Below, in pieces: positions 1-43,955 of a DNA stretch of 64,000 nt. How positions within the stretch are numbered: position 1 is the first letter of the stretch; every line of letters begins with the position of its first letter. The notes below the pieces were generated by a model. The model saw only the letters and a list, made by a program, of their open reading frames with translations, was not told the origin of the DNA and did not search any database. The DNA lies in contig NC_134482.1 in NCBI RefSeq assembly GCF_964194025.1, positions 37,448,001 to 37,512,000 on the forward strand. Reading direction: 5' to 3'. Origin of the DNA: Convolutriloba macropyga. Lineage: Eukaryota. Made by a program: the position numbers and the translations under genes.

Positions 1-872
1 TGATGAAAAAAATTCGAAATTTGAAAATTTGATCACAAAGTTTAAGCCAAAAAAACTTCAATCAAACAACTCAGCAGCCTTCTATCTTTGCCGGTACCTA
101 TAACATTCTACCATTTGAAATTTTACCTAATTTTAAATTCTTTTTTTTGAAATTGTGCTAAATTTTAGCAAAAATTATTGAAAATGTGAATATAAACTTT
201 CGAATAATCACAAAACTTGAATCCTCAATAACACACTGTAAAAATCAAAAATCGAAACAATATTTTTTATTCCATATTCTAGTTTGTACGTGCTTTTTAA
301 TGTTATCACTCATAACTCTCTACGATGAATATATCGATCGGCCAAAATTGTCGTAAAAAAGACCCATTTGAGTATATAGTTCCTCCCTCCCCACCAAAAT
401 GGGGGTCGGAACAAATGTTCAAGGAAACTTTTGCACGCAATTTGCCAATGCTAAATAAATGAAGGAAGCGTTTAGGTTACAATAAACCTCATGAATTTTA
501 GATATCTTCAGATATTTACAATAAAGTTGTAAAATCCGCTTTATTTTTAGAAATAAATCATATGTATTTTACTTTTGAAAGCCTTGGTAAAAATATATAC
601 GATAAACGCGCAAATGTTTTTTAACATGATTGGATTCTCTTTAAGTTACACACATATACTCCAAGTTTTGAAAAAATGTCAAGATTTCGCGAAAAAAAGG
701 CAGCAATCTTACAAAATTTTGAAAAACTGTGAAAGGAGTTCTTACTATACGGATCTAAATCTAGCTAAAAAAATTTCAAAAACCAGAAAAAAAAGTAAGT
801 TAACACTTTTTGCATATACGTTCTTAATAATGAAAATAATAATAGTAGTAGTGAAAATGCCGGTATTTTAAC

Positions 873-2722
873 GCCATGGCCTTTTTTAGGTATACTTTTC
901 GAAAACTTGTGAAATCTTTTGAAAATTTTGTTTCTCGTGGTTGGCAAAGACTTGTAATTTTTTTGTGAATTTGGTGTTGTGAGAGTGTTGGAACTTGTAA
1001 AATATTTGCAAAAAATTTGGTGTGGTAAATGAGTGAAACTTGTAAAATTTTTTGAAAATTTTGCAATTTTTTTTAAAAATTCTGAATCCTTTTTCTAGTC
1101 TATTGAGACTAATGAAGGGCTGAAAATCGAAAGTGACAAAACTGATGGAATACTGAGGTAAGGGAGGAAAAATATAGTTAAAATGTGATAAGTTTTCGTT
1201 CCAAGGTAAGAAACTTAATAGTTTTACGAGTCTGAGACCGCACAAGTGGCATTAATTTTATGGTTTTTATTTCCCATATGTTTGAATTAACAAGCAAGTG
1301 CGAAGTAATGAAATTTGAAGTTTGTTGATTTTCAAGCCTGGAGAAAAGTTTTAGGTAGAGTTTCGAACTGAAAATAGTGCATGAGAATCAATAGGGGACA
1401 AAATATCCTAAAAATTGACTGAAAAAAAAAGAAGAAATTGGGGTTTAAAACTTGTCTGAAAATTGGTTAAAAAAGTGATTTTATCGCTCCATTATTCTGT
1501 CGCAAAATGCTTGATATGGGAGCCAATTGAGTTATGGTAAAATTACGGGTTGAAAATAGTTTGAATGGAGCGCTCAAGGTGTATTTTTGAAGACATTTTG
1601 CGTCAAAAACAGACAAAATTTTGAAAAAAAAAGTGCAAAAATTGCTGTTTTGTGGTAATAAAAAGTTTAAAAAATTGTTTTTCGCCGCCAATAAGCAGTT
1701 TTAAACAATTTAAAAGCTGTTAAAAGATGGTGGGAGAAAAACTGTTGAGGAATCGGTTTTATTTTAAATAATATTTAGTGATAATTTGTACTTAAACTTT
1801 TTGTATTTTTTGATGAAAAAAGGCCAAAAATGTGCAGGAATTAGTAGTTTCTGAGGTAAGAATGTAGAATAAAATGTTCTATGGTAGTTATAAGGGGTTG
1901 GACAACAAAGTTTTATAAGTTGAAAGTTTGCTCGAACAATTAAAAAAGAGTAATTGGGTGTTGTTTGCATGTTACTTTTTGTTCTATTTTTGATATTTTT
2001 CGGCAAATTTTGACAAAAAAGTGAAAAAATTGAGGTTTCTTGAGCAAAGAATGTAAAATAAAGTAATATTTCTTGTTGAAACGCAATTTGCAAAGAAATT
2101 TTGTCCTTTAACAGCTTGGCGAAACAAATAATAGTGACTAATTATGTGCTGAATATATGTTTTTTTGTTAATTTTTATAATTTTTAGTTAAAACTATCAC
2201 TATTTTGCGAACCAAATGTTATAAAAGAACTTTATGCTGAAATAGCTGACGTAAAATTGTACAGTGGTCACTTTAATTATTTGCGCTGAAATTGTGGATA
2301 AAAAAAGGTTAGAGATTAAGAACAAAAAAAAGGAATGATTTTAACAATTTTGCCGGCGATGAACCCATTTATGTTTCTATGCATACTTTTTTGAAACTTG
2401 AGTATGACTTCATGTATGACTTCATTACATGGTACTCAGAACTTGGGTGTGGCAACCATAAAGGTAGGATGAGTTTGAGTTTGAGTTCTATTTTTAGCAT
2501 ATCTGTGAAATCAACCATGTAGAGCCAAGTGAGGAAAATTGCTCTTAAATAGTTTTTTTGGTATTGCATTTTCCTTGCGATTCAATTCCAAGAAAAGCCG
2601 CATTTCTTAAATTCATCTTACAGCGTATTCATACCATTAAGAGTTTATTTCTTGTCCACAACGGAAAGAAAGTTATGACTGAAAATCTTTCCTTTCACGA
2701 TAATAGTGACTTTTACCACGAA
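873..2722 (+). repeat. Left long inverted repeat (TIR-like, ~1.85 kb) of the Polinton-like element
   Basis: Collinear reverse-complement match to 14666-16496 throughout (e.g. tctgaatcctttttctagtctattgagactaatgaagg at ~1081 vs ~16250-16290; ...gacttttaccacgaa at 2722 vs 14666). Roughly 85-90% identity by eye. Confidence 0.9.
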
Positions 2723-3040
2723 ATTTCGTGCTCTAGCAAACGAATTGTTGTTGCTTCAGTAAAAACATACGAAACAACGGGAGCCTATTTTACTCTAAGA
2801 CTCTTCAAAAAAGATTCCGGGGAATTCTGTTTAAACCAAAGAATAACTCTCTCAGCTGCTGAATTCGATCTTCTCGGCCAGAAATTGAAAACGATTCAAG
2901 ATCTATCGTCTCGAGGAACTGCAATGAAAAGTAAACGAAGGAAACGATCTGGTTGTGAAAGTGATCTCGAAGATCTTGAAGAAAAACCTCATTGCGAAAG
3001 TAGAGGAGCAAAAAAATTACGACAAAAAAATAACAAATAA
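2675..3040 (+). CDS. Putative PC4-like ssDNA-binding protein (121 aa)
   Basis: Open ORF from ATG 2675. The pattern KRIVVASVKTY..GAYFTLRLFKKDSGEF..NQRITLSAAEFDLL resembles the PC4 fold (beta-sheet followed by a GISL..EQW-type helix). Basic and acidic low-complexity tail. Confidence 0.55.
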   Translation: MTENLSFHDNSDFYHEISCSSKRIVVASVKTYETTGAYFTLRLFKKDSGEFCLNQRITLSAAEFDLLGQKLKTIQDLSSRGTAMKSKRRKRSGCESDLEDLEEKPHCESRGAKKLRQKNNK

Positions 3041-3045
3041 AGCAA

Positions 3046-3387
3046 GTGAAAGTGACAAAGAAATTAATTAGCAAAATGGTGGAGGCAATGGTTGAGCGCA
3101 CACCGGAATATTTTCGCCAGTTTGCTAATCAGTGTCGTTATTTTATATGTCGATTTGAGCCTATATTTGACCATACCGTAACCAAGAACTTTGCCTGCAG
3201 CTTGCATATGAATGACAATTTTTGTAAAGTACCTGGATCTCATTATCATGTAATTGCCTCCAATGATCAACTTCCTGATTCTTTCAAGTCTACAGCATCC
3301 AAACCATTCATTATACCTGGTCTCTTCACCTGTTTCAAACTACTTATTAAAACAAACTTAACAAATAAAGTTTTTGTGGAGAAATAA
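3046..3387 (+). CDS. Hypothetical viral protein with HUH-like motif (SLH..D....PGSHYHVI)
   Basis: Open 113-aa ORF (first ATG 3076) directly after the PC4-like ORF; His-hydrophobic-His motif HYH followed by hydrophobic residues. Confidence 0.45.
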   Translation: MKVTKKLISKMVEAMVERTPEYFRQFANQCRYFICRFEPIFDHTVTKNFACSLHMNDNFCKVPGSHYHVIASNDQLPDSFKSTASKPFIIPGLFTCFKLLIKTNLTNKVFVEK

Positions 3388-3677
3388 TGAACAAAACTGA
3401 CGAAGCGGTGAACTACAACGAGAAACACCTATTGAACTTTGCAAACTCTAAGAGAAAACTACCTAACGTTGATTGTGTTTTCACCAATAGTCTTCAAAAT
3501 CAAACTGAGTTTTTGCCTACTTGTACGGTTGATAGATATTATAGTATTTATAATGGTGGCCTGTACGGTGAGTTTTCCAAAATACTTGATATAATAAATA
3601 GTGGCTATGTTTGTTTGGATGTTGACAATAGTTTGATAATGATAAATTTTAATATGGAATCGAAATCTTCTAAATAA
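3387..3677 (+). CDS. Hypothetical protein, possibly a frameshifted continuation of 3046-3387
   Basis: ATG overlaps the previous stop (TAATG); 96 aa; lies between the HUH-like ORF and the convergent protease gene. Confidence 0.35.
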   Translation: MNKTDEAVNYNEKHLLNFANSKRKLPNVDCVFTNSLQNQTEFLPTCTVDRYYSIYNGGLYGEFSKILDIINSGYVCLDVDNSLIMINFNMESKSSK

Positions 3678-3737
3678 AAATTTTGTTCTTTGTTGTCTTT
3701 GAAGAAATAATTGAGCAAAAATTTTAAATTAAAAATG

Positions 3738-4155
3738 TTAGAGCATATAATTAGCAAAGCGTAGCAAATCATTATCGTTCATATTCAAAAATAAAGGATA
3801 TTCGTAACCAAACAGCACATGTAAAATATAAATGCAAAAAAGTCCACTGAGTTTTGAGTTTTGATTTTGAATTGGCTTAAGTTTGAGTACTTGAGTTAAT
3901 TCATTGTAAAACTGTACCATACGGTAATACAGAATTTGGTAGTTTTGTATAGGGATTCCAAGCGGGTCAGCCAAATAAACTTTGTTTTTTGTGAAACAAA
4001 AGAACCATCAAATGACTTCCTTCATATTGCGCTGTTGAAGCATTAACTACAAAAAATCCCCGCCTTGTTAATTTTGGGAAATTATCTGCTGCAAAAACTC
4101 CATTAAAATAATATTTCAAATGTTTACATTTTCCCAACAAATAGCGTATTTTATC
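3738..4155 (-). pseudogene. Adenain-like (adenovirus-type) cysteine maturation protease, copy A
   Basis: FNGVFAADNFP, NAST..EGSH, LADPLG, IQNQNSKLSGLFCIY. Catalytic Cys reads as Ser. N-terminus lost by a deletion fusing it to the capsid gene. Confidence 0.85.
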
Positions 4156-4156
4156 A

Positions 4157-5301
4157 CTATGCCTCTTGCGTTGAAGTTAAATGAAAAGCTAGCATAAAGT
4201 GATTGGGATAATTGTCCAGAGTTATGCCATGCCCACCTTTGTCAAGAAAAGCTGGGGCTTCTAGAGTATTGAAGTAAATTCAGTGGTTAAAAGTTGTTGA
4301 GACCGGAGTTCCAACAATAGGTTGACCAATTCTATAGACAACAATCTGGTTCAAATTGAATTTCTGGCAGTGAAAAAAATTAATGCGATTAGTTCCAAGG
4401 TATGCTTGATTTGTTGCCATTGCAATTATCATACGTTGAGCAAATACTTTCGAGAAAATCTCCTCATGGCTCCAACTTCTTATTCCAGTTGTAGTTAAAA
4501 AATTTCGTGGCAATACTTCTGTATAGCGATACACGGCAGGTGTTTTTAGTAGAGTTTTCTCAATTGCCGTCAAAACAAGATCCGCTATTGTCATTTTTCT
4601 AAGCTAGAGATTAGCTTCAATTATTTTAACTTTGTAATGTTTGTTTGACTCTGAAATTACAGCAAAACCATTTGTAGACCTTCTAAAGGAAATTCGCAGG
4701 TTAACACCATTAAGTAGGTCTTATCACAAGTTAAAATATCACTCACCGGCTTTCTAATAAAATAGTTTTCCTGAGAATTATCAACAAGAGCTTTTCTGGC
4801 CAATACGCCGTCCGCGCGACCGTCGCTGCCATCAATTTTAGCTGGCTTATCCTCGTAATAATATCCCTGACAAGCTAGCTATGTTGTTTTTTGCAGTTTT
4901 TTCTGAAGAAAATTCTGTTTCAATGAATGCTTTGTGCGCATAATTTCCTCTTGTGTTGGAAATTTTAACACCGTTAGCAGATACAGTGCATTCTGAAAAT
5001 AAAGAATGTAATGCATTGTTGCTTAAGTATGGCGTATCGGTATTTGCAGCGTCAGTTCCTGTTCTTAAATTGCCGTCATTGTTCCGGGAGTTTTTGCATT
5101 TAATTTCAAGGAGAAGTTTTTTTAATTCTATAAAATTGTTCCTATTACCCAACAGTTCAAACTCAAGCATTGGACCATCCGGGGAATATGATGGCCCGTT
5201 TTTAGAGTAAACGCATTGTCAAAAGTAATAAGCAGAGGCTGTTTTTCAAACAAATCAAGTGTGGTGTGTGCTGCCTCTGCGGACAGCAAATTAGTAATCA
5301 T
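4157..5301 (-). pseudogene. Polinton/adintovirus major capsid protein (double jelly-roll), copy A
   Basis: MITNLLSAEAAHTTLDLFEKQP...GPMLEFELLG...NNALHSLFSECTVSANG...YAHKAFIET, then RRMIIAM..N.AYLGT...F.K.NLNQIVVYRNGQP. Frameshifts, stops and C-terminal deletion. Confidence 0.88.
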
Positions 5302-5590
5302 TTTGAACTTCAGAAAAGAAATTTGACCGACTTCTCGTCAAAGGATTCTTCTTACAAATGCCTTGTTTTGGCTTTTCACCGTTGGTTTTTAATTTACGCA
5401 TTCTTCCTGTTTTTGATCTGCCCACTTGTTTTCTTACAGTTTTTTGCACAGTCGAACTTTTGTGCTTGTTATGGAGACTTTTTCTTTGTAACTACATCTA
5501 CCAGCTCAGGAGTTGCTTGAACAATTAGTTCACGTCCAATCTTTTTGGCTACAGTCCAGAGAAACTTTCTTGCAATAATTCCTTCGTTTT
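5292..5590 (-). pseudogene. Basic core-like protein remnant upstream of major capsid, copy A
   Basis: ARKFLWTVAKKIGRELIVQATPEL.DVVTKKKSP..TVRKQVG...RSRSNFFS; K/R-rich, in the position of the Polinton core-like gene; 5' part deleted. Confidence 0.55.
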
Positions 5591-5599
5591 TACCAAAAA

Positions 5600-5980
5600 A
5601 TAGGGATAAAACTCTATTGATTTTGTTAAATTGATAGACAAAATGAGGAAATCCTGTAGCTGTTTTTAAGGATCTGAAAAGATGGTCAGGGTTTTCATAG
5701 GAACCAATTCCAATGATAGCTCGTTCTTCTCCGTATGGTCTGGGACAGCATCAAATGGAATATTTTCCTCATAAAACTTAAGGCCCTCAGAAAAAATTAT
5801 CTTCAAATCACTTTTGTTCACTTGTTTTATTTTTGCCGGGATGTTTTCACTTAGTGCAACTCGCCAATCCCCCTCCAAATTAATTTCTTTATTGAAATAA
5901 TTTTTGAATGAGGACAACGTGTTTTGAGGAAAAATATTCAATGATGCTGGTGAAAATAAGTGAACCGTGAATTCTATCAT
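5600..5980 (-). pseudogene. Minor capsid (penton-like) protein, N-terminal remnant, copy A
   Basis: FTVHLFSPASLNIFPQNTLSSFKNYFNKEINLEGDWRVALSE matches the typical Polinton minor-capsid N-terminus; truncated. Confidence 0.8.
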
Positions 5981-6007
5981 GTTTTGTTATATAACTACTA
6001 TTGTCTC

Positions 6008-6508
6008 TAAATTTTGACCAACTCTAACTCATAAAATTTTCCTTTGACTGGCTCCTGGGATGCGTCAATGAGACTACAAGTAGGGGGATTTGTTGTAGGT
6101 ATATCGTAAATCTCGAAAACTTTGTTGGTAAATGTTTGCTTGTATCCTTTTCTAAAAGGAAGATCCGCTTTTGATATTCGCACAAAGTCCCCAAAGTAAA
6201 ATTTTGGTCGACGAAATAGTTTTGCTGCGTATTAAAAATTAATGATATCAAGTAAGGAACGTCTTTCTTTGTCATTTTATTGGGCGCCAATTTCGTTACT
6301 CTGTTGACTCTAGAGAAAATGGTTTGTACAAAGCTCTGCAATTGATTAATATACGAGTATGTTCATTTGTTCTCTAAACACTATATCAAATTCTTGAGCG
6401 ATCGCATATTTCTATCCGCAAATGCTGAATTGTTCTTGCTGAAAGTTTTATAAACTTCAATATCTTTTTTCTGACAAAGAGTGCTGAAGGAGCCCTTAAT
6501 TTCTGTAC
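6008..6508 (-). pseudogene. Integrase C-terminal half (duplicated fragment)
   Basis: Near-identical copy of 8735-9238. Confidence 0.85.
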
Positions 6509-6522
6509 CATAATCGTAACCA

Positions 6523-6884
6523 GATATTCGTAACCAAACAGCACATGTAAAATATAAATGCAAAAAAATCCACAGAGTTTTGAGTTTCAATTTTGAATTG
6601 GCTTAAGTTTGAGTACTTGAGTTAATTAATTGTAAAACTGTACCATACGATAATACAGAATTTGGTAGTTTTGTATAGGGATTCCAAGCGGGTCAGCCAA
6701 ATAAACTTTGTTTTTTTTGCGAAACAAAAGAACCATCCAATGACTTCCTTCATATTTCGCTGTTGAAGCATTAACTACAAAAAATCCCCGCCTTGTTAAT
6801 TTTGGGAAATTATCTGCTGCAAAAACTCCATTAAAATAATATTTCAAATGTGTACATTTTCCCAACAAATAGCGTATTTTATCA
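6523..6884 (-). pseudogene. Adenain-like cysteine protease, copy B (truncated at duplication junction)
   Basis: ORF 6626-6868 has GSHW and LADPLG; the following segment encodes KLCGFFC out of frame after a stop. Confidence 0.85.
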
Positions 6885-8029
6885 CTATGCCTCTTGCGTT
6901 GAAGTTAAATGAAAAGCTAGCATAAAGTGATTGGGATAATTGTCCAGAGTTATGCCATGCCCACCTTTGTCAAGAAAAGCTGGGGCTTCTAGAGTATTGA
7001 AGTAAATGCAGTGGTTAAAAGTTGTTGAGACCGGAGTTCCAACAATAGGTTGACCATTTCTATAGACAACAATCTGGTTCAAATTGAATTTCTGGCAGTT
7101 AAAAAAATTAATGCGATTAGTTCCAAGGTATGCTTGATTTGTTGCCATTGCAATTATCATACGTCGAGCAAATACTTTCGAGAAAATCTCCTCATGGCTC
7201 CAACTTCTTATTCCAGTTGTAGTTAAAAAAGTTCGTGGCAATACTTCTGTATAGCGATACACGGCAGGTGTTTTTAGTAGAGTTTTCTCAATTGCCGTCA
7301 AAACAAGATCCGCTATTGTCATTTTTCTAAGCTAGAGATTAGCTTCAATTATTTTAACTTTGTAATGTTTGTTTGACTCTGAAATTACAGCAAAACCATT
7401 TGTAGACCTTCTAAAGGAAATTCGCTGGGTAACACCATTAAGTAGGTCTTATCACAAGTTAAAATATCACTCAGCGGCTTTCTAATAAAATAGTTTTCCT
7501 GAGAATTATCAACAAGAGCTTTTCTGGCCAATACGTCGTCCGCGCGACCGTCGGTGCCATCAATTTTAGCTGGCTTATCCTCGTAATAATATCCCTGACA
7601 AGCTAGCTATGTTGTTTTTTGCAGTTTTTTCTGAAGAAAATTCTGTTTCAATGAATGCTTTGTGCGCATAATTTCCTCTTGGGTTGGAAATTTTAACACC
7701 GTTAGCAGATACAGTGCATTCTGAAAATAAAGAATGTAATGCATTGTTGCTTAAGTATGGCGTATCGGTATTTGCAGCGTCAGTTCCTGTTCTTAAATTG
7801 CCGTCATTGTTCCGGGAGTTTTTGCATTTAATTTCAAGGAGAAGTTTTTGTAATTCTATGAAATTGTTCCTATTACCCAAAAGTTCAAACTCAAGCATTG
7901 GACCATCCGGGGAATATGATGGCCCGTTTTTAGAGTAAACGCATTGTCAAAAGTAATAAGCAGAGGCTGTTTTTCAAACAAATCAAGTGTGGTGTGTGCT
8001 GCCTCTGCGGACAGCAAATTAGTAATCAC
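6885..8029 (-). pseudogene. Polinton/adintovirus major capsid protein, copy B
   Basis: ORF fragments 7575-7898 and 6885-7322, ending ...GHGITLDNYPNHFMLAFHLTSTQEA; frameshifted. Confidence 0.88.
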
Positions 8030-8317
8030 TTTGAACTTCAGAAAAGAAATTTGACCGACTTCTCGTCAAAGGATTCTTCTTACAAATGCCTTGTTTTGGC
8101 TTTTCACCGTTGGTTTTTAATTTACGCATTCTTCCTGTTTTTGATCTGCCCACTTGTTTTCTTACAGTTTTTTGCACAGTCAACTTTTTTGCTTGTTATG
8201 GAGACTTTTTCTTTGTAACTACATCTTCCAGCTCAGGAGTTGCTTGAACAATTAGTTCACGTCCAATCTTTTTGGCTACAGTCCAAAGAAACTTTCTTGC
8301 AATAATTCCTTCGTTTT
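8020..8317 (-). pseudogene. Basic core-like protein remnant, copy B
   Basis: Duplicate of 5292-5590. Confidence 0.55.
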
Positions 8318-8329
8318 TACCAAAAAATA

Positions 8330-8707
8330 GGGATAAAACTCTATTGATTTTGTTAAATTGATAGACAAAATGAGGAAATCCTGTAGCTGTTTTTAAGGAT
8401 CTGAAAAGATGGTCAGGGTTTTCATAGGAACCAATTCCAATGATAGCTCGTTCTTCTCCGTATGGTCTGGGACAGCATCAAATGGAATATTTTCCTCATA
8501 AAACTTAAGGCCCTCAGAAAAAATTATCTTCAAATCACTTTTGTTCACTTGTTTTATTTTTGCCGGGATGTTTTCACTTAGTGCAACTCGCCAATCCCCC
8601 TCCAAATTAATTTCTTTATTGAAATAATTTTTGAATGAGGACAACGTGTTTTGAGGAAAAATATTCAATGATGCTGGTGAAAATAAGTGAACCGTGAATT
8701 CTATCAT
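8330..8707 (-). pseudogene. Minor capsid (penton-like) protein, N-terminal remnant, copy B
   Basis: Translation identical to 5666-5980. Confidence 0.8.
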
Positions 8708-8734
8708 GTTTTGTTATATAACTACTATTGTCTC

Positions 8735-9650
8735 TAAATTTTGACCAACTCTAACTCATAAAATTTTCCTTTGACTGGCTCCTGGGATGCGTCAATGAGA
8801 CTACAAGTAGGGGGATTTGTTGTAGGTATATCGTAAATCTCGAAAACTTTGTTGGTAAATGTTTGCTTGTATCCTTTTCTAAAAGGAAGATCCGCTTTTG
8901 ATATTCGCACAAAGTCCCCAAAGTAAAATTTTGGTCGACGAAATGGTTTTGCTGCGTATTAAAAATTAATGATATCAAGTAAGGAACGTATTTCTTTGTC
9001 ATTTTATTGGGCGCCAATTTCGTTACTCTGTTGACTCTAGAGAAAATGGTTTGTACAAAGCTCTGCAATTGATTAATATACGAGTATGTCCATTTGTCCT
9101 CTAAACACTTGTATATCAAATTCTAGAGCGATCGTATATTTCTATCCGCAAATGCTGATTTTTTCTTGCTGAAAGTTTTATAAACTTCAATATCTTTTTT
9201 CTGACAAAGAGTGCTGAAGGAGCCCTTAATTTCTGTACTAGCATCTACCCACACGTTTATAGGTTGCTTGTTTTTTATCATTTTCTTAAACGCATCTGCT
9301 GTTGTTGTGGCGTACTTTGATTTTAAGTGTTCGACTCGTAGATAACGTGAAAGACAGTCCACCGCAACCAACAAATATTTTACATCTTTGTTCTCTTTTG
9401 CAAATTTATCCACATAGGCCAATTCTAGCGACCAAATCTCGTTTATGTCGTAAGCAATAGCTTTCAGTGTTGAAAATCTTTTTCTATATTTCTTATGCTT
9501 TGTGTGGGCATTTTTACCCTCTAGAAGCAACTTCACTTTACTTGGTTTCAATTTTGTGCTTTTTGTCGATTTTTACGCTTCCGTACCCTGTGGGACGTTT
9601 CGTATACTTTAACTCAAGCAATTTTTTCTCATCCCTCAAAAGATTCCCGG
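8735..9650 (-). pseudogene. Retroviral-like (rve, c-integrase) DDE integrase of Polinton type
   Basis: YTK.PTGYGSV, AHTKHKKYRKRF, WSLELAYVD, YLLVAVDCLSRY, VWVDASTE, KSAFADRNIRSL, then KF.FGDFVRISK..PFRKGYKQTFT and GKFYELEL. First Asp reads as Glu and catalytic Glu as Asp; stops and frameshifts present. Confidence 0.93.
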
Positions 9651-10210
9651 TTTTTCTCCTCTTGCTGAGTTTTGTCTTCCTTTGAGGTTCCGAAACCACT
9701 TCCGGCGTCTGAGGATTCCTCTGTAAGTAATTGACTGGTTTCTTCGTGCTTGGTTCTTCTTGGCGCAAAATTTTCTCTTTCTTTTTTGTTTAGTAACCCT
9801 TTGAGTTCTTTTCCGGATAAAAATATCAGCATTACTGTTGATCACCAAATCTTCTTTTATGTTTAAGGCCTCTAGAATTTTGATATAATCTGGATTACTT
9901 AGTTTTTTAGTTAGTTGCTGCAAATCATGGAGAAAAATAGGGACATTTATTCCTGTCGCTGTTCCGTCAACAATTAAATTTTGATTTTCGTCTATAACGA
10001 CGTTTTTTGATTCTTTAATGAGGTTAACTGTTTTTTTCGTCCTGGTAAGTTTTCATTTGTTAGCATACGGTTCAAAAACGAAAGATGAGCACCTCTATGC
10101 TGAACTCTCGGATCATTTAGAAATTATCATTTAAAATTTGGGAAGAAAATGGTTGCTCCTCATAAACTGATTTTTGGGAATCAAAATAAACTCTTCAGCA
10201 GTTCACATTG
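9636..10210 (-). pseudogene. Conserved uncharacterised Polinton protein upstream of integrase
   Basis: LIVDGTATGINVPIFLHDLQQLTKKLSNPDYIKILEALNI..DLVIN resembles the conserved ORF found between ATPase and integrase; disrupted 5' part. Confidence 0.5.
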
Positions 10211-10211
10211 C

Positions 10212-10490
10212 TCAACTCAAATGGATGAAACAAAATTTAATATTGAGCTGAATCAGTTCAAAACCGGGTTTTGTTAGAAAAAGTGCTCGTCGTTTATCCG
10301 TCGATGAATTTTTCTTGAGAACGCTTTCAAATATGTGTCTCTAATCTTCTAAGTCTCTTACTTTCACTCTAACGTGGACCAGTAAAACATTGAGAAGACA
10401 TTCACATAAAACCAGTATAACATCACTATCACAACTACGGAAATATTTCCTTAACTCGTTTGGCTGCAAATGTACAATTTGCTTCAGTTT
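10212..10490 (-). pseudogene. Small conserved Polinton protein (CECxLNVL motif) downstream of ATPase
   Basis: Manual translation: ELRKYFRSCDSDVILVLCECLLNVLLVHV...*...KRRALFLTKPGFELI, with one internal stop. Confidence 0.55.
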
Positions 10491-11150
10491 AGATAATTTT
10501 TTCTCTTTCATTGTTTAGTGGAGTTGTTTTTGCTTTATCAGATGGAAGATAAAAAACTGTAGGACCTGGCTCAGTAATATTTGAACAGTATCGTAAACAA
10601 TCAGAATTTTTTGGAACTAGATCTATAAGCAAATTTCCAAACGATTCTTTTGTTGCCAGTTGATAGCACTGTTTTAAAAATTTAACAAGGTTCAACTACT
10701 TGCCTAAAAAATCAATTTGTTGAATGTCGCGAGCTGATTTGAACAAAATGATGTGTGTTGTGTTAAAGTCTATTGTACGAGACCACTTGCTCTGTTGATA
10801 AAGGTTGTGCTTTATAGGAATAACTTTAATATTTTTGTGACGCCCTGCAGTGGTCAGTTTAACAAAATCATTGTCATTGTAAATTTCTTCGCACGAGTCG
10901 TCTATTATCAGAAGACAGTTTGCAAGGCTTTTCAAAAATTCTAAATTGCCGTTTTTGTTAAAGGTAACACCAAGTCTTTTCTCCAATTTGATGTATTTTT
11001 GTTGCAATTCTCTGTATAAGAAAATAATTTTGCTAAATTTTGGGAAAAATGTGTTTCCACTCAGCATTTTGAAAATTAACTCTGGTTTGCCGCCACCTGA
11101 AGAACTACAACGGCCATGAAGACCCTATCTTGTGTAGATACAATTTTATT
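10489..11150 (-). pseudogene. A32/FtsK-HerA-type genome packaging ATPase
   Basis: Degenerate Walker A (AVV-SSGGGKPEL, frameshifted), Walker B LLIIDDS, GRHKNIKVI..HNLYQQSKWSRTIDFNTTHIILFKSARD.QQI, then FGNLLIDLVP...LRYCSNI; in-frame stop at 10696. Confidence 0.92.
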
Positions 11151-11509
11151 CAAAGTCTTGGATTCGGTAAAATTTAACCAACTAAACTAGACAAAATTGA
11201 TATCCAAGATGATGTTTCTTCACAATTTGGTTTTAAAATGGTTAATTTAACAATACAAAATGATATCAGCCGTAAAACAACAAACATTTGCAAAAAAAAT
11301 ACAACTTCTGACCGTGACAACGTTGTTTGATTGCAAAATTGCCATGACGATTTGCTGCTACTTTCTTTTTTCAAAATAACTTTCTTCGACAACAGCGTCA
11401 ACTTGATCAACTGTTACTCCCTACATGTCGACACAAAAAAAATTTTTTAAAAAAGTTTATTGAGAAAAAAGTCACTCTACATAAAACAATTCATAGCAAT
11501 TGAACTCGG

Positions 11510-11950
11510 TTAAAAATGTTTCATCTGAACCATAAAGCTCTCCAAGAGTCTCCCAGTTTTGTCATAATGAAATATTTTGTGAACTCTTTCTTCCTTCACC
11601 AAGTTCTGAATCTCCTTTGGCAGTGAAGGATTGTTCTTGTCAATTTCTTCACCAACAGGGTGTTTCGACATCAGTAAGAGTCTCGGAGGACAGACTCTGG
11701 GTTGAATTTTTGACATTCTGCATTTCCACTGAAAAAATGGTTCAATATAATATACTAAATGAGTGAATGATCGAATTTTGTCCTCAGTCAGCAACAATTT
11801 TACTTTTCCCTGTAAAAATTGGTTTCCGGTTTTTTTTATGGTTTCGTCTTTGGAAACTGAAAGACTCAGATTCCCGTCCCCCGTAATCAAAGCGCAAATT
11901 GTTGAACTCGGTGACAAGGGTGCTTCCACTTTCGTCAATTCCTCTCTCAT
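11510..11950 (-). CDS. Hypothetical element protein, possibly a chimera of frames
   Basis: 146-aa open frame co-oriented with the viral block; no recognised motif. Confidence 0.25.
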   Translation of the reverse strand: MREELTKVEAPLSPSSTICALITGDGNLSLSVSKDETIKKTGNQFLQGKVKLLLTEDKIRSFTHLVYYIEPFFQWKCRMSKIQPRVCPPRLLLMSKHPVGEEIDKNNPSLPKEIQNLVKEERVHKIFHYDKTGRLLESFMVQMKHF

Positions 11951-12427
11951 TTGTTAACCAGTTGAAATAGAAAATGGCTTTTTCTTTTGCACATGGTTTG
12001 TTGAAAATGTTTTTGCTCTTTGAATGATTTTGACAGTTTTGTGTAAAGTAGTTCACAGATATGGAAGGACACGCGAGTGAATTCAGATCAATGATAGAGC
12101 ACTCAAGCAAATCTAACAAAATTTTATTTTATCCCCTCCCTTAGCGTAGAATATTGCACCCGGATTCCTAAAGCGAACGTTTTGAATTATTTGCGTAAGA
12201 TAAATGTAGGGATAGTTTCCTGTGTCCCGCTCAATGCCGAGCAAAATTCCAGTCAATCAACTGAAGGATTGCTTTTATTGAGTTGTTAACTCACTATAAC
12301 TTGGAGGTAAAAAAGAGACGCAGTCAAGATAGTCCTCAGTGCAAAAACCAAGTTCTTTAACAAAAAAATTTTCCTTTCTGTGACGAAACCCTTCAACGTC
12401 TAACACAACTGTTTTGATGCTCATCAT
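11945..12427 (-). pseudogene. DEDD/DnaQ-like (Maelstrom-like) nuclease-fold protein of Polinton-type elements
   Basis: MSIKTVVLDVEGFRH..FFVKELG...SFLPPSYSEL..*..S*LT..LLGIERDTGNYPY...IFYAKG.DK / IIDLNSLACPS...CQNH...PCAKEKA..YFNWL; two stops and one frameshift. Confidence 0.6.
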
Positions 12428-12429
12428 TC

Positions 12430-12919
12430 CAATAAATGATAAATTGATGGAAGAAAAACCTTTATATATAATCAAAACAATATTTGCGACAAATGTCCGC
12501 TTTAACAGTTGCTGCTTTTCTACGGAAGCGTATAAGAATAACCAGTTCCTTGGTTGTATCTTTCGTATATAAATCCCCTGAGTCGTGTAAAACAGCGTGC
12601 AAACGTAAATATCTTGAGATTTTAAGTATTTATCTACTGAAGAAATATCTACGCCAATAATACCACAGTAGGGCCTCAACTTTAGCGCTTTATCAAAATC
12701 AAACGCTTCAGTTTCACTAAAAAATTCACTTGTAGCCAGAAAATAATTTAACCTTACACTGTTGTTTGGGTATATTGATGAAACCGATAAATAATTTTCG
12801 TGGGATTTGTTCAAACAGTTTCTGCAAACAATTGGCTCTCCAAGACGCATACCTTCTTTTCGCAAGCCTGGCCGCGCATTAAAATGATTGGAAATATAAG
12901 AAAGTGGGTTATTGTTCAT
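12430..12919 (-). CDS. Hypothetical element protein with CxxC (CRNC)
   Basis: 5' part of ORF 12275-12949; probably a separate gene that now reads into the nuclease-like gene. Confidence 0.35.
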
Positions 12920-13095
12920 TGCGTTGGGAAAACAATTTATTAACAACAAACAAAATGGGATTTGATTTATTAAACATATACCTAACCTTGATACTACATA
13001 AGCAAATTATTTTGAAACAGTTTCAAGATAAGGAGGCAATAAAAAATGTTCCTGGCATATGCTGGGCTTAGTTTGTATGTATCTTCATAAATAGT

Positions 13096-13236
13096 NNNNN
13101 NNNNNNNNNNNNNNNNNNNNNNNNNNNNNNNNNNNNNNNNNNNNNNNNNNNNNNNNNNNNNNNNNNNNNNNNNNNNNNNNNNNNNNNNNNNNNNNNNNNN
13201 NNNNNNNNNNNNNNNNNNNNNNNNNNNNNNNNNNNN
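13096..13236. other. Assembly gap (141 N)
   Basis: Run of N. Confidence 1.
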
Positions 13237-13896
13237 CGTTTTACTGTTGATTATCGTTGATAAGAAAGTAATAAATACGTTTGAGTGGTTTGCACACTCA
13301 AAGGTAGCGTAAAAACATTGAGGTCAAGTTTTGTTCCAAAGCATAATAAAACCGTGAGTGTAACAAAACACTATTGCGAGAACACATGTTAAAAACCAGA
13401 CCTTAACCAACCCTAAAGCTTTATATATCTTTTGATCTACATAGCATTCGTCATATCAACGCTGTTTGGTACTTGAACAACATACTTCACTCATTAATTG
13501 CTCTAGATAAGAAAGTAATAAAATTGGGTGTGAACAAGCGACATAGCTAACTCGGAAAGATTGGAAAGGTTAACCGAATAGTATACTGAGGTACAACTAA
13601 AATACATGAATTTTAGTGTATTGAACTTGTCTGTAAGAGCAAATTGAATAACTTTTTACAACAATAACGGAAGGAATTGATTGAGCACGCCTTAGTTTAA
13701 AATTATACATGAAATCTTAAATTCCTAATTTTTGCTTTAACTTTCATTTGTTCAAGTCCAAATTTTATTTAGCAGAACTGTTCCTGGATTCTGACAACAG
13801 ATTTTTTTGTTCAATTTGATTACCAAATTCTACCATAACCAAAGAAAATAATTCTAATGTCTCCTCTAGCCATCATTCTAAAGGCGGAATAGACTC

Positions 13897-13990
13897 CTGA
13901 CAGCTTATGAAATGCTTAAAAATGACAGCTCATGAAATGCTTAAAAATGACAGCTCAAAAATGAATGCCTATGAAATGTCAGCTCCCAAA
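13897..13990 (+). repeat. Short ~25-bp tandem repeat (tgacagctcatgaaatgcttaaaaa)
   Basis: Two full copies plus degenerate copies overlapping the start of ORF 13965. Confidence 0.75.
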
Positions 13991-14510
13991 TGCTTATGAG
14001 ACTTACAGAAAGCAGACTGTTATCGTTGTACAGCAGGACTATCAGTTAGATGAATGGGTTACAGTAAATCACATGGCTGTGCTCATTGTGATTTTTGATT
14101 TTATTCAGTCATTTCGATTTCAGAAGGGCCTTATGAAAGGAGCTCATTACTTGCTGGATTTTGTAACGTCTTATGTCATTGAGTTTGTATTCGACACAGA
14201 CACATTTGACGATGAAGTTCGAAAAAATTTTTACGATTATGACGTGAAAGAAATCCCGCTGTATGAAAATCAAGAAGGGTACTGGAGAGATCTTGATCTG
14301 TTTGAAAGCATTTGGAGAATGAAACCAGATATTGAGGGCCCAGAAACTTTTAGCGAACCAGCAACACCTGCCATGGTTCATGACACAATTGCCTGTACAC
14401 CTGAAAACACACCAGGTGATTTTTCGAGCAGTGGAAGCCTTGTGACTCCACCCTTGAGCAAGTGTTTTGCACGAAAGAAACGAAAAATCGATCTCAATTA
14501 TGAAAACTAA
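13965..14510 (+). CDS. Hypothetical acidic protein with TP motifs and C-terminal NLS-like RKKRK
   Basis: 181-aa open frame with biased, protein-like composition next to the right inverted repeat. Confidence 0.5.
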   Translation: MPMKCQLPNAYETYRKQTVIVVQQDYQLDEWVTVNHMAVLIVIFDFIQSFRFQKGLMKGAHYLLDFVTSYVIEFVFDTDTFDDEVRKNFYDYDVKEIPLYENQEGYWRDLDLFESIWRMKPDIEGPETFSEPATPAMVHDTIACTPENTPGDFSSSGSLVTPPLSKCFARKKRKIDLNYEN

Positions 14511-14665
14511 ATCAAACTATTCCTTCGTTGAAATTGTTTGTTGTGTGTGTGTGACATTCTTTTGTGAAGCTGACTTTATAGAATTTGAATATTTTATAAT
14601 TGAATTCTCAGATCTTTCAGCTCGTTTCAAGTATCAAACTCTAGCAAAAAAAGCACTTCATATTA

Positions 14666-16496
14666 TTCGTGGTAAAAGTCACTATTATCGTGAAACGAAA
14701 ATTTTTCGGTCATAACTTTGTTTCCGTTGTGGAAAAGAAATACTCTCTTAATGGTATAAACACGCTGTAAAAGGAATTTAAGAAATGCGGCTTGCTTTGA
14801 ATTGAATCGCAAAGAAAATGCAATATCAATAAAACTATTTAAGAGCAATTTTCCTCACTTTGGCTTTACCTGGTCGATTTCACAGATCTGCTAAAAATAG
14901 AACCTAAACTCAAACTCAGCCTACTTTTATGGTTGCCACACCCAAGTTTTGTCTACCATGAAGTCAAGTCACACATAAACGCTTCAAAGAAGTTTTCATA
15001 GATGGGTTAATCGCCGGCAAAGTTGTTAAAATCATTCCTTTTTTGTTCTTAATCTCTCACACTTTTTTAACCACAATTTCAGCGCAAAAAACTAAACTGA
15101 CCTCGTACACTGAAAACTGTAAAAATAGACGTCAGCTGTTTCAGCCGAATGTTCTTTTATAACATTTGGTTAGGTAAATAGTGATAGTTTTAACTAAAAA
15201 ATATAAAAATAAACAAAAAGAACATTTATTCAGCACCCAATTAATCCCTATTATTTGTTTCGCCTAGCTGTTAAAGGACAAAGTTTCATTGCAAATTGCG
15301 TTTCAACACGAAACATTAATTATTCTACTTTCTTCAATCAAGAAACATCAATTTTTTCACTTTTTTGTCAAAAATTGCCGAAAAATATCAAAACCTGAAC
15401 AAAAAGTGACATGCAAACAACACTCAATTATTCTTTATTATTTGTTCGAGCAAACTTTCACCTTATGAAAATTTGTTGTCCACTCCCTTAAAACTACCAT
15501 AGAACATTTTATTCTTCCTTCTTACCTCAGAAACTGCTAATTTCTGCAGGCCCTTGTCATCTAAAAATACAAAAAATGTAAGTAAAAGTTATCACTAAAT
15601 AATATTTAATATAAACCCGATTCCTCAAAAGTTTTTCTCTTGACATATTTTAACAGTTTTTAAATTGTAAAAAAAGGCTTATTGGCGGCGAAAAACATTT
15701 TTTTTTAAAAACTTTTTACTACCAAAAAACAGCAATTTTTGCTTTTTTTCAAAATTTTGTCTGTTTTTGACGCAAAATTGCTTCAAAAATACACCTAGCG
15801 CTCCATTCAAGCTATTTTCAACCCGTAATTTCACAAAAATTCAAGTGGCCTCCATATCAAGGCTTTCGAGACCTAATAATGGATTGATAAAATCACTTTT
15901 TTAACCAATTTTCAAACAAGTTTTAAACCCCAATTTCTTCTATGTTTCAGTCAATTTTCAGGATATTTTGTCCACTATTCATTCTCATGCGCTATTTTCA
16001 ATTCGAAACTCTGCTTAAAACATTTCTCCAGGCTTGAAACTCAACAAACTTCATATTTCAATACTTCGCACTTGCTAGTTAATTCAAACATATGGGCAAT
16101 AAAACCTATAAAATCAATACCACTTGTGCGGACTCGGACTCACAAAACTATTAAATTTCTTACATTGGAACAAAAACTTATCAAATTTTATATATCTTTT
16201 TCTTCCCTTACCTCAGTATTCCATCAGGTTAGTCACTTTCGATTTTTAGTCCTTCATTAGTCTCATTAGACTAGAAAAAAGATTCAGAATTTGAAAAAAA
16301 ATTTGCTAAATTTTCGAATAATTTTACAAGTTTCACTCATTCACCGCACCAAAATTATTTCCAAAAATTTTACAAGTTCCAGCGCTCTCAGAACATCAAA
16401 TTCACAAAAAATTTACAAGTCTTTGCCTACCACGAGAAAAAAAGTTTTCGAAAAATTTTACAAATTTTTGAACAGGATATCTAAAAAATGCCATGC
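14666..16496 (-). repeat. Right long inverted repeat (TIR-like); outermost AGTAGT terminus not retained
   Basis: Reverse complement of 873-2722. Similarity stops at ...aaaatgccatg (~16495). No ACTACT end or 6-bp TSD seen. Confidence 0.88.
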
Positions 16497-19400
16497 CGGT
16501 ATTGTAACGGGGGGGGGGGGGGGAATAGTGCGAAAACCTGTTCTACACTCAACATTCATACTCGGCCCATGACCTGTGTTTGAATGATTTGGTACTGTCC
16601 ACTCCAATTTGGGATAGGTCGTAGTGTCCTCCTCTAGAGGTTTTTATGCTCCAAGACATTTTTAAGAAGCAACCTTAGGTAATCATTATCTTTCGATAAG
16701 CGATAAGGAGTGAGGTTGAGGTACAATTCATAAATTAACAAGCGAAGAAATTGCTATTCTTTCAAAAAAATTTCTCAAGGATAATTTAAAGTAACAATTT
16801 CAAAATGTTTTCCGGCTTTCTCATTTCTCAAATTTTCAAACACATCGAAATAGTTCTTAATCATATGTTTTACAGTAGATAATTGCAAAAAAATTTATTG
16901 TTAATATTAAACTTTGTAATGCGTTGAAAAATTGTGAAATAAGTGAAAAATCCTTTCCGAAAATCTTCTAACCAGAAACATGTTATTGAGTGATGTCCCA
17001 ATGCTAATTGAGAGAGTATTTAGGTTACAAATGAGCTCATTAGTTTTTAGCTATCTTTATTTTTTCACCTTAACATTAGTGAACTTCTAGGAAGAGAAAC
17101 CGTTTTGACATTTTCGCTTGTAAAAATTTCAGATGCTCAGTTTCTCTAGAACTAAGCCCAGTGAAAGTCATTGTTTTTAGACGATTTTTAAAGTTTACCG
17201 CAAAATACATAAAAAATTTTGTCCTTTTTTTTCTAAATTGGCATTCTGACCAAGTAGATAAGGTAGTTTGGCTACCAAATTGTTCTTTATATTGGCCTGT
17301 TTGTCTTCATAATTTACAGAAAAGATATTCGACTGTTTTTTAAGATGCCTCGGCAAAACAGATGGCAGTTGTACTTTTAATATTTTTTTCTCCACTAAGA
17401 TGGTGTAAATCAGATATAAAACTTTAATAATCTAATTAATTATGATTTTAAATTATATCATGTAGGAAGGTCAATAAGATTCAAGGTCCTGAGAAGAAAT
17501 TGAACATAGCAAAAGTCAACTTGTACTTCTGTCAATTTTTTGTAATCAAAAAAGGTCAAGTGTTATCTTTTCTTTGTTTCTTGATTTTTTTGCTTCTTTA
17601 TAAATTAATATAAAATTTTGTTTTTTTTTGTTAGGAGGCAAAAGTTAAGATGGGATTCACATGAAACAGAGTGTCCCAATTTTTTATTTTAACGCCAATC
17701 ACAGATGCCGTGCATTAACTTGCCAAACTGTTTTGTGCGCAAAAGAAAAAAGTTAATAACGAAAATAATAAGGGAAAAGTTCCTCTGCCAGATGAAAAAA
17801 ATTGCTTCAACCTCTCTAATGAATGATTATCTGAACAACTCGTCAAAACACTTTGGATACAGATTTTTGGTCAAAATCTTCGTAATATACCGTTTTAATC
17901 TGAACATTTTTGGATTTTCAGGAAAAAAAAGTCTAGAAGATTTGATTTAAAAAAAATTTGGAACTTTTTACTCTGATTTTAATTTTCAAGCTCATCACAT
18001 AAGTTTCAAAATTTTATTTGTGGTTCCTCGGAAAACGTTGCCCTGTCTGCTGAAGTAAGTTTCACTAAATTTTCCTGTACTTTAGTTAAAGTTGCATTAC
18101 ATTACTTTCATATAAATGAGTAGGTAGATTTAAACAATGATTTCAATGCATATGACCAATAAAATTCTAGTTAAAATGCTCGAGGTTGATAATGATATAA
18201 AATCTAGAAATTGAAATTTTTATTGCCATTATAATTTATCGGAAATATTTTTTCCCATTCAAACGAACTATATAAATGGAAGTTCAGTTGCATTGCTGTT
18301 CACCAGGTCACATTTGAAAGACGTTAAAAAAATGGCATTTGATGAGATCTCTTTCAAACAAAAAACTTTGAACGAAAGTCAACCTTTTACATGCTCTCGT
18401 TTGATTTGCAACACTTGAACAATAAAAACAAAGATGTAACTTTCACAACCAAAATGAGAATAAAAGGATTAAATTCGATTGAAAAATCAATCAATTTTTC
18501 TCCTGACCATTCATGAAATGTAGTTTCTTCATTTCTCTCTCCACATGTTTTGATTAAAAACAACCTTGTCAACATAATTGCAGGTAGATCGAGCATTTGG
18601 ACAGAAATGGATAATTATGAGGTAACAAGAAACTAAGATTTGCTGACACTAAATCGAAAAATTATTTGGACATGAAATATAGTGTGAAGAAAAGTAATTT
18701 TGCTAAACTGTTTTTTTTCAATCCACACCTCGAAATCCCTCTTTGAAGCTTCTCTAGAAATTTAATACTTTGGTTCCCACAGACATTGAGTGGAAATTTT
18801 TTATATTCAAAGAATTGTCTTATACTCGAGAGCCGTAAATCAAATAAAACAACAAACATTAATCACGGCGAAAATTCAATGTCTATTTTCTAGAAAAACC
18901 CTTAAAACAAAGGCGAAGAAGAAAAAAAACAGAAAAAATCAAATCTGAAAAATTTCATTTATATCTGATCAGAAAAAACTTGATAAGTTGTTTCCTGGTC
19001 TTATTCGTGGCCTGCCGCGAATGAGACCAGGTAACAAAAAAATGCTCAACTTGACAATTTGGGTTTTTTTTTGTCAAATTAATCAATGTCATGAGAACCC
19101 AACTTTAGGCAAAGTAAAAACAGAAAGCGCAATATGAAAACACTAACTTTATGTTTTTGAAAATGTAAAACATATAATTTTAATTAGAAGAATTTGAAAC
19201 CTCGTAGTATCAAAGCTAACAATTCTAGATTTGCAAAGAAAGTCGCATTGAAAAAATTTAATTTCATTAGACAGAGCATGTGACCGTCCTTTGCTTAGCA
19301 TAAATACATGGCGAAAGAAACGAGAAGTGGCAGGAAAAATATTTTCTAGAATCTATATTTTCTAGAACACCTACTTTTCAAACTCATAGCGACCATAAGC

Positions 19401-21349
19401 TTTGTAAAACAAAAAACTAGATGGAATGAGTTTGAATTCCATTGGAAGTCAATTTGACTTTTCATCAAACAGACTGGGCAACACGTATGACAATTTTCGT
19501 TTTTGTTTTGAATTGTTAGGTTATAATCAATTTTTTGTCAAAGGAAATCTTAAAACTGCTCCGTTTTTTGTTTCGTACGAAAACATTGAGATCTTTCATT
19601 ATGGAAAAACACGTCAAACGACTATGAAAAGAACGACGAAACAGGCAAAATAAAAAAACCAAGCGAGAAAAACTTGTCTAGTTTGTTAAAATTGAAATCT
19701 ATGCTAAAACATTGGATATATTCCACAACGCCTGCACCCATTAAAGTTATTTTTTGTATTTTGCCCAGCAATTACTAGCATGATGTGACGGAAAAACAAG
19801 TAAAATCTCAAAAACGGAAAATGAACAAATGTCCAAAAATTGAGAACTCAATCTGTCAAAGCTAAACAACAAGACAAAAAAATTCAAAGTGACAGAAATG
19901 AGGAAAAAAGTGCAGAGCTCAAATAGTTGCAAGACTTAACCTTTTTTTTTGGGAACCAGTCTTTTTGAAGAAAAAGCAACCAAAAGAATTCGAACAAAAA
20001 ATCCAGAGGGATATATTTGAGTTAACTTGTAACTCCTGTGGACCTGTAGTATGTGAGACTAAGTCTTAAGACTGCAAAATATAAAAAAATACTTGCAGAC
20101 CTCAGAATTTCATAATCAAATTTAATCTAACGCAGAGTTGAAGCCATAGGAGCCATTTGAAACATAAAACGTGTTCATTGGCACTCACCTTCATTGAATA
20201 TATAATGGTCTTTAGTAAACATACAAAAAAAAACAAAAAACGCAAAAATTATTAAAAAAATAGAGTGTACCCCTATATAATCTGAATAAATTATGGTTTG
20301 TAAAAATACTCGATTAGACATATACAAGCCTTGCTATTGCTGCGCGTCCATCAAACACATGTAATAGTGTCAATTGTGGCGGAGCATTTCCATAAAAACA
20401 GGAGTACAATTTACCCTTTATGGGACTTGAGAAGGTTGCGTTTGAAGTTTTTGAAGATTTACTGCAAATGCAACAAAGTGGACTAAAATTTTTTTCGATT
20501 TCATTTTTGATTTAAAATGTCTGATTTTTGAAAATTTGTATCAAGATTTCAGCCAAAAATTTGGATCCAACCATTCAACAACGCTCCTCTGTCCTTAAAT
20601 GTAAAACTAATAACCCATCAAACAATTGTAACTAATATGTAGCAAAATCGACGAAAACAAATTTGGAAAATGTGAACAAAGCAGCCGAAATCAGTAAAAT
20701 GTCCACGAAACTTTAAACCTCGACGGAAAGAACCAAATTCAATCCAAAAAGTTTTTAATTATATATTCTACGCTGGAGGGTTTGCTAATGATAGCTTTAT
20801 CAACTCTCTACCATGAATATATATCGATCGGCCAAATTTATGACTCAACAAAAAACCAGTTGAGCATATTATCACCCCCCCCCCGCGCTGTGGTGGGTCG
20901 GAACAATTACTCATTCTCTTTCCTGCAACCAACGGTACACAACAACATGCAGTGAAAGTGGGAGAGGGTTGACTTTAAGGAAAATCTAGTAATTTAAGCA
21001 GAAATTTAGTCTCATTTTCTAAAATTTTGACAAAATTTCAGTGTCAATAAGGTCATTTTGAAACGACGTGTCGATAAATAGATAAACAAACCAAACAAAC
21101 ATTAAAACAAATATCCAGAACTTGAAGCAACAAGGATAACCATTGTTGTAAATAACCATCGCTTTCTCCTATGTTATAAGACACGTTTATAAATGCAGTT
21201 TTGAAGGATATTAAATATCACTGAAAGAACTAAGTCGAAAATAATTACCAAAACAGTGAACAATTACAAATGACACGTCGCCATATAATAAAAAATTTGT
21301 GAATTGTTATATTACAGTCGATTTTTGCCCTATTTTACTACAAAAAACA

Positions 21350-21806
21350 ATGAAAGCTAACTTGATACTTTGGATCGAAATTATACTGTTTAGCGTTTTT
21401 ATTAGTTTAACTTCGCAAGCTGTTTTCAAAGTGAAATTGCACAAGGGATGTGCAAAATCTCCGCAAGGATGTCCGAAAAAGGAAAAAGAAGAGAGAACAG
21501 ACAACAGGAAAACTGGCAACTCTGGAATCAAATCCTTCCTCAGAACCCAAGTTGAGCATCAAACGATGGTACTATCAGCACAGAGCACAAATGATAGTTA
21601 CTATTATTACAACAGTTTTGACACCAGAGAACGGACTTCATTCAACGAGGCCTTGAAGAATTATATTAATGTAAGACTTGCGTTATACATATTGCAATTA
21701 ATAGGATGTAGAATGAATAGAGTGCTGAAAAAAATTTAGCTCTATTTAGCTCTATTTGAACCTGCTCAAGATAGAATCCCATCCAAAAATTATTTTTCCG
21801 ACATCA

Positions 21807-43910: not shown

Positions 43911-43955
<45 letters not shown>

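Follow-up and report, generated by a model that had tools for sequence, protein, structure and literature searches.

The window analysed here is a 64,000-nucleotide stretch of the Convolutriloba macropyga genome (contig NC_134482.1, positions 37,448,001 to 37,512,000). Near its left end lies a Polinton element that begins with AGTAGTAGT at position 844 and runs to about 16523. It is a dead member of a Polinton lineage that is present in multiple copies and lacks a gene for the protein-primed DNA polymerase B (pPolB). Polintons are defined by pPolB together with an integrase (PMC5499653). By its packaging and integration genes the lineage is a Polinton, it lacks the defining pPolB, and it is most likely a satellite of its polymerase-bearing sisters. 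A first-pass annotation, made from the letters of the window, had placed the element at 844..16496; the left end was upheld, and the right end was found to lie further out. The features of the element are as follows.

844-2722, plus strand: left terminal inverted repeat; starts with AGTAGTAGT; the family's terminal hairpin is deleted; stops inside the PC4-like gene
2591-3040, plus strand: PC4-like gene remnant (label from the first-pass annotation); present in PolB-bearing relatives too
3058-3677, plus strand: o200; predicted HUH/origin-binding fold, HxH kept; frameshifted in the window; also in PolB-bearing relatives
3741-4158, minus strand: adenain-type protease remnant; partial second copy at 6524-6886
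3797-9245, no strand: tandem duplication of a 2.73-kb unit; copies at 3797-6515 and 6523-9245, 98.5% alike
4160-5337, minus strand: major capsid protein (MCP) remnant, duplicate copy
6888-8065, minus strand: MCP remnant; 441 aa in sisters
8022-8339, minus strand: o132, small basic core-protein-like open reading frame (ORF), remnant; duplicate at 5294-5612
8304-8713, minus strand: minor capsid protein remnant, part of the gene removed by a ~570-bp deletion; duplicate at 5577-5986
8703-9786, minus strand: remnant of the rve integrase gene; second copy of its 3' part at 5976-6539
9635-10211, minus strand: o228, conserved ORF, remnant
10441-11219, minus strand: A32/FtsK-type packaging ATPase remnant
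11153-11456, minus strand: o91, small hydrophobic ORF, remnant
11802-12499, minus strand: 209-aa ORF with a DxE motif
12427-12862, minus strand: o143, conserved ORF, remnant
13096-13236, no strand: stretch of N in a non-coding spacer; homologous interval 63-83 bp in 14 sisters
13857-14510, plus strand: R195; upstream of pPolB in PolB-bearing relatives, directly followed by the right repeat in the window
14666-16523, minus strand: right terminal inverted repeat; contains the PC4-like gene's opening 44 codons in inverted form; outermost ~45 bp gone

The window has a counterpart to every one of the family's 13 genes. Each of the 12 that were tallied is broken, as is the MCP gene, which stood outside the tally. 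The repeat arms (~1.9 kb; about 844-2722 and 14666-16523) differ by 11.3% substitutions, and the copy has no target duplication because the last ~45 bp of its right end are missing. The tandem duplication is younger than the insertion; its junction was spanned by contigs in two of four runs, both from one sample that is possibly the source of the assembly. The adenain, integrase and ATPase remnants named by the first-pass annotation were borne out by Pfam matches in the window (Peptidase_C5, E 0.004; rve, E 4e-6; A32 ATPase, E 0.055) and, above the Pfam cut-offs, in a well-preserved sister (PF00770 for adenain, E 4e-7; PF00665 for rve, E 2e-9; PF04665 for A32, E 1e-5). The two putative capsid ORFs (441 and 287 aa) have no Pfam match and are ~60% conserved in PolB-bearing relatives; their labels as major and minor capsid proteins come from gene position and the first-pass reading. 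No match to the 209-aa ORF was found in the PDB.

pPolB was sought in the whole window with 15 PolB-type queries from the same genome, comprising ten PF03175-type PolBs, one PolB of family C and four PolB-arm ORFs of family D, and the best E value was 0.43, confirming the missing polymerase that had been reported. Four explanations had been offered for it: the gene had been deleted from this copy, lay hidden in the gap at 13096-13236, had been replaced by another replication module, with the PC4-like and HUH-like ORFs as candidates, or was provided by a helper. The gap was not supported as a hiding place. Sisters are colinear on both sides of it, and since the homologous interval is so short in all 14 that were measured, there is no space for pPolB. 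A search of the 1.18-Gb genome with the capsid gene gave 40 scored matches out of 1015 candidates, and 31 related copies were read: 21 of type E1 (the window copy included), six of type E2 and four of type E3; one end was not covered in three E1 and two E2/E3 copies. pPolB is absent from all 31. Deletion in the window copy alone is thus unsupported as well, and the absence of pPolB is a family trait, not a one-off deletion. A normal pPolB in full-length relatives had been set beforehand as the observation that would speak against the claim; the full-length sisters have none. Neither tblastn nor permissive blastn found a PolB remnant inside the long repeats.

A typical E1 copy is 12.3-14.15 kb long. 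The 6-bp target duplication is perfect in 14 of the 17 E1 copies with both ends read and has one mismatch in the other three; for E2/E3 it is perfect in 4/8, has one mismatch in 2/8 and is absent in 2/8. Repeat divergence in 12 E1 copies ranges from 0.12% to 14%, and insertion therefore proceeded in waves. All 12 tallied genes are free of stop codons in three of the 21 E1 copies. Selection was assessed as the ratio of nonsynonymous (N) to synonymous (S) rates (dN/dS) against one natural E1 reference copy, with up to 20 E1 copies; variants found in at least three copies were counted as shared, and those of intermediate count were left out. Private variants gave a dN/dS of 0.84 (1987 N, 627 S) and shared variants 0.14 (160 N, 300 S; Fisher p 1e-64 against private). 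The values were 0.81 for private and 0.16 for shared variants in the five genes without alleles common to family D, the proposed helper (PC4-like, o200, protease, MCP and R195). The capsid, protease and ATPase genes gave 0.07-0.12, and o200, at 0.25, was among the loosest. Selection was seen on all genes. Given the low dN/dS of shared variants, the lineage therefore kept its virion and accessory genes functional while it had no polymerase. Tandem arrays of element ends with ~2-kb spacing were also observed, at C9:3009705-3018585 (five E2 termini) and C16:48033422-48036996 (three E1 motifs).

The PC4-like gene and o200 occupy the same position in every complete PolB-bearing relative read, and they are therefore not a polymerase substitute. 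The PC4 label itself had no sequence support in Pfam or the PDB, and the N-terminal domain of R195 gave weak PC4/PUR-like fold matches (Z about 4). The predicted model of o200 is weak (predicted local distance difference test, pLDDT, 55). In fold comparisons it comes closest to domains of the HUH Rep and origin-binding kinds (Z 3.0-4.2), RepB being the best match (Z 4.2, root-mean-square deviation 3.8, 89 aligned), with further matches to parvovirus and CRESS (circular Rep-encoding single-stranded DNA virus) proteins at E 0.006 and weaker. Among 11 o200 sequences the HxH motif (H56/H58) is invariant. The helix at 83-92, as placed in the pLDDT 55 model, has no invariant tyrosine and carries an invariant Phe87; the sole invariant tyrosine, residue 178, lies outside the domain. 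Because the HxH is kept and an invariant tyrosine is absent from the expected helix, o200 may bind an origin without nicking it. Of the proposed replacement module, the HUH-like fold of o200 agrees with these tentative matches, and a substitute role is unlikely. No replacement replicase (helicase, PolA or primase-helicase) was found among the 13 ORFs, whose only P-loop protein is the A32 ATPase; all 13 have orthologues in PolB-bearing relatives, and there is no extra ORF.

The genome holds many Polinton lineages (3891 and 6655 PolB candidates), and the PolB-bearing elements that were compared belong to families A, B, C, D, F and G. The PF03175-type families A and B (12 elements) were rejected as parent or helper, with the integrase at ~30%, no MCP match and no DNA match; they have other AGTAGT/AGTAAT termini (loci L060-L095). 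The C families (11 elements) contain all 13 genes in the same order, with an MCP identity of ~62%, repeats of 90-170 bp and a pPolB that adjoins R195. The hairpin-less C families were rejected as helper on their different termini and the MCP divergence among the 11 read. One C-family Polinton with pPolB lies 2.1 kb from an E1 copy (L044:2553 to L096:9432).

Family D is the closest to E1. A census of the E1 terminal 18-mer revealed a second size class near 17.4 kb (among 100 of 153 matches listed), and nine of the ten long elements read were family D with pPolB, the tenth being an E1 copy with a duplication. D and E1 have the outer ~90 bp in common, including a hairpin with a 27-bp stem behind AGTAGT (z -5.8 in E1, -6.9 in D) that is absent from two C families. 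When a young E1 copy was compared with a young D copy, 5 kb of the core, from the 209-aa ORF to o132, was 94-100% identical; the arm genes (protease, o200, PC4-like and R195) are 42-55% identical. The pPolB of family D, a 923-aa ORF (L138:2213-4981), has no PF03175 match at E 0.01, and Pfam-based surveys therefore miss the family. The search with a DNA_pol_B_2 hidden Markov model that had been suggested as a check would by itself miss this likely helper. The pPolB of families C, D, F and G contains an Endonuclease VII-like motif (PF02945, E 0.003 in C). The D genes are broken at fixed sites by GT...AG spacers (L133:4483-4593 and about 7165-7350; likewise in L134, L136, L138 and L140), those of F and G have spacers that are intron-like by layout, and the C families show a similar break near the 3' end. 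These spacers are likely spliceosomal introns.

In gene trees of 22 rows, with 2-9 missing per gene, the PolB-less rows form one clade for o200 (support 100/99, stem 0.69; long branches flagged), for the protease (100/99, stem 0.39) and for the MCP C-terminus (99, quick tree). Their termini are of three kinds: E1 ends as family D, E2 as family F and E3 as family G, the terminal 90-180 bp being common to each pair. E2 and E3 agree in their arms (85-94% at the DNA level), and the cores of F and G are mostly 65-81% alike. E1-E3 have one integrase type and E2/E3 one o200, yet their termini differ; the terminus therefore tracks a foreign PolB family. In core trees D and PolB-less copies are mingled, old copies beside old ones and young beside young; the 5' part of the MCP separates the two at 100/100. 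Monophyly of 25 PolB-less rows was rejected by the approximately unbiased (AU) test for the integrase (p-AU 1.6e-7) and for o91-ATPase (2e-53), and E3 joined G at 100/100 in both trees. Judged by these trees, the PolB-less copies have exchanged core genes repeatedly with D and G; the trees do not settle the root, nor with it the direction of E/D core transfer. Paired ends no more than 15 kb apart, which are a proxy for the absence of PolB and come from copies that are not independent, made up 19 of 32 pairs of the D type (among the matches listed), 4 of 6 of F and 20 of 25 of G.

A reciprocal family was found as well. The PolB-only elements (four read) consist of an E2 end, a protease stub, a PC4-like gene, R195 and an F-type pPolB, and have no ATPase, integrase or capsid gene (loci L168/L169, L188/L189, L192/L193, L196/L197 and L214). 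They have the same junctions, with the junction present at five loci and a variant at two more. Their 6-bp target duplications are perfect in three of four; in the fourth element the left tip is gone. As these elements encode no integrase, their insertion implies supply in trans. One of the four has a shortened pPolB, in whose place stands 1.1 kb of the opposite end in inverted orientation, and matching target duplications flank the element (L192:4262 to L193:5712). An event of this sort could produce the PolB-less family's long repeats, whose inner boundary lies within the PC4-like gene. Derivation of the E2 repeat from the R195-PolB spacer was considered and rejected, the match being to the E2 end within the PolB-only chimera.

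Of the four explanations offered for the missing polymerase, a helper is the best supported. We consider it probable that the lineage is a capsid-forming, helper-dependent satellite Polinton, with pPolB supplied in trans by the full-size sisters whose termini it bears. The satellite would be excised in a cell with an active helper family, and the helper pPolB, with its fused terminal protein (pPolB includes the terminal protein; PMC11161782), would prime at the common AGTAGT-hairpin end. The satellite would then be amplified, and its own capsid and integrase would serve for packaging and integration. As to its origin, the central block may have been flipped with respect to the R195-PolB arm, and the 2-kb repeats may have formed when the other end, copied in inverted orientation, replaced the PolB arm. 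A bolder version, to which we give somewhat less than even credence, is that pPolB was lost a single time in the distant past and that the satellite lineage has lasted by taking over the termini of one helper family after another; together with the PolB-only family it might then make up a Polinton with a naturally bipartite genome, and show in progress how mutual complementation gives rise to a segmented DNA virus.

Several points weigh against dependence on these sisters. Replication, virions and transcripts have not been observed, the family being known here from the genome sequence. The PolB-less copies are not one clade in the R195 tree (24% of bootstrap trees), and every F copy read is degraded; these copies seem to predate the youngest E2 copies. 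The termini of F and G are about 80% alike in the hairpin, and helper specificity may therefore be loose. The common termini and core could stem from ectopic gene conversion between integrated copies, or could be a by-product of co-infection without dependence. In addition, short elements occur almost only with hairpin termini (paired ends of at most 15 kb in 43/63, versus 1/33 in the hairpin-less C1/C2, among the matches listed), and the fold matches of o200 are to HUH Rep and origin-binding domains.

These last two points, with the stem hairpin of E1 and D that two C families lack, also favour self-sufficiency with a host polymerase, in which the terminal hairpin and the HUH-like o200 would sustain rolling-hairpin replication of the parvovirus type and pPolB would be dispensable. 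We regard this as unlikely. The helix in which Reps are expected to carry a tyrosine has no invariant one in the low-confidence o200 model, no helicase is encoded, o200 is present in all complete PolB-bearing relatives and is among the most loosely constrained genes, and E2 and E3 combine the same o200 with different termini. The hairpin is moreover internal, 13 nt from the free AGTAGT end, and the capture of three helpers' termini is left unexplained.

A virophage-like dependence on an unrelated larger DNA virus, with the sharing among sister Polintons a co-infection by-product, is very unlikely. Polinton-like viruses (PLVs) do depend on giant viruses, but such elements usually retain their own replicase or primase-helicase (PMC11296320), and protein-primed ends require a terminal protein; no virus of this kind was seen here, though no search was aimed at one. 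The chances are slimmer again for cut-and-paste movement, in which the integrase excises and reinserts the element and copies are gained by host repair, with no amplification. The intact integrase, long inverted repeats and 6-bp duplications would fit such movement, but purifying selection on the capsid, protease and ATPase genes points to the packaging of amplified genomes, and the termini go with PolB families and not with the integrase. The idea that a normal Polinton recently gave rise to the lineage by deletion, with passive amplification, is largely refuted: the core is nearly identical to that of family D and recent polB-less derivatives are known in insects (10.1101/2025.02.07.637071), but the arm proteins are far more divergent from D, the arms group in a separate clade on long stems, of 0.39-0.69 changes per site, and are under selection, and no PolB-bearing element with E-type arms was found among the 31 copies read.

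The remainder of the window holds exons of host genes in tandem for cathepsin D-like aspartyl proteases, at 21260-21739, 34994-35569, 42610-44326 and 57062-57604, with PF00026 matches at 42689-43021 and 43961-44326, and a second stretch of 200 N at 39542-39741.

Self-synthesis is part of the definition of Polintons. A lineage that persists without a polymerase and with a selected virion module indicates that supply in trans between Polintons happens. PolB-seeded surveys miss this class, which outnumbers its helpers here by the count of short hairpin-type paired ends among the matches listed (43/63). From the three terminus captures, the ~100-bp end is indicated as the replication origin, and origin specificity in Polintons becomes testable; the PolB-only partner suggests a possible route to segmented genomes. 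No PolB-less family is described in the available parts of PMC8502044, PMC10748475, PMC11131425 and PMC3014272. No satellite or bipartite Polinton was found in the literature covered, which leaves out subscription journals and bioRxiv supplements; the supplements of 10.1101/2025.02.07.637071 may bear on novelty. An IMG/VR scan with the MCP gave eight candidates, none confirmed.

The family resembles animal Polintons/Mavericks (adintoviruses) in its AGTAGT termini, inverted repeats and target duplication of 6 bp, and in its rve integrase, A32 ATPase, adenain, putative capsid genes and purifying selection on the core (PMC8097293, PMC8502044). In vertebrates, intact Mavericks carry eight genes, come with 6-bp duplications and show purifying selection (PMC8097293). 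The PolB-less family differs from animal Polintons in having no pPolB, in its 2-kb repeats that stop inside a gene, and in the position of R195 at the other end. pPolB2-type Polintons carry an HNH insertion (PMC10748475), and the PolB-bearing sisters C, D, F and G have an Endonuclease VII-like motif in pPolB and share all 13 other genes, in the same order, with the PolB-less family. That likeness concerns the likely helpers and not the PolB-less element; homology to the nematode insertion is putative, and the pPolB genes of D, F and G have intron-like spacers.

Tlr1 elements reportedly retain an rve integrase. Tlr1 elements and PLVs likewise have a morphogenesis module without canonical pPolB, but they encode another replicase or helicase (PMC11161782), and none was found among the 13 ORFs here. 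PolB-less insect polintons are also mobile, lack polB and are flanked by inverted repeats; they are few, recent and highly similar to complete elements, they carry transposable elements (LINE or Gypsy) as cargo, and their mobilisation was left open by the authors (10.1101/2025.02.07.637071). The present lineage offers an answer to that question. The PolB-less family differs from them as a deep clade with dozens of copies, under selection, without cargo and with three helper termini captured.

Short non-autonomous Polinton-N elements are not known to retain a virion module under selection. Satellites that encode a capsid, such as adeno-associated virus, satellite tobacco necrosis virus (STNV) and capsid-forming phage-inducible chromosomal islands (PICIs) make their own capsid, rely on a helper for a missing step and share origins with that helper. 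What sets the present case apart from them is that helper and satellite are sister Polintons that recombine; module exchange is known across these viruses (10.64898/2026.10.13.758929; PMC11296320).

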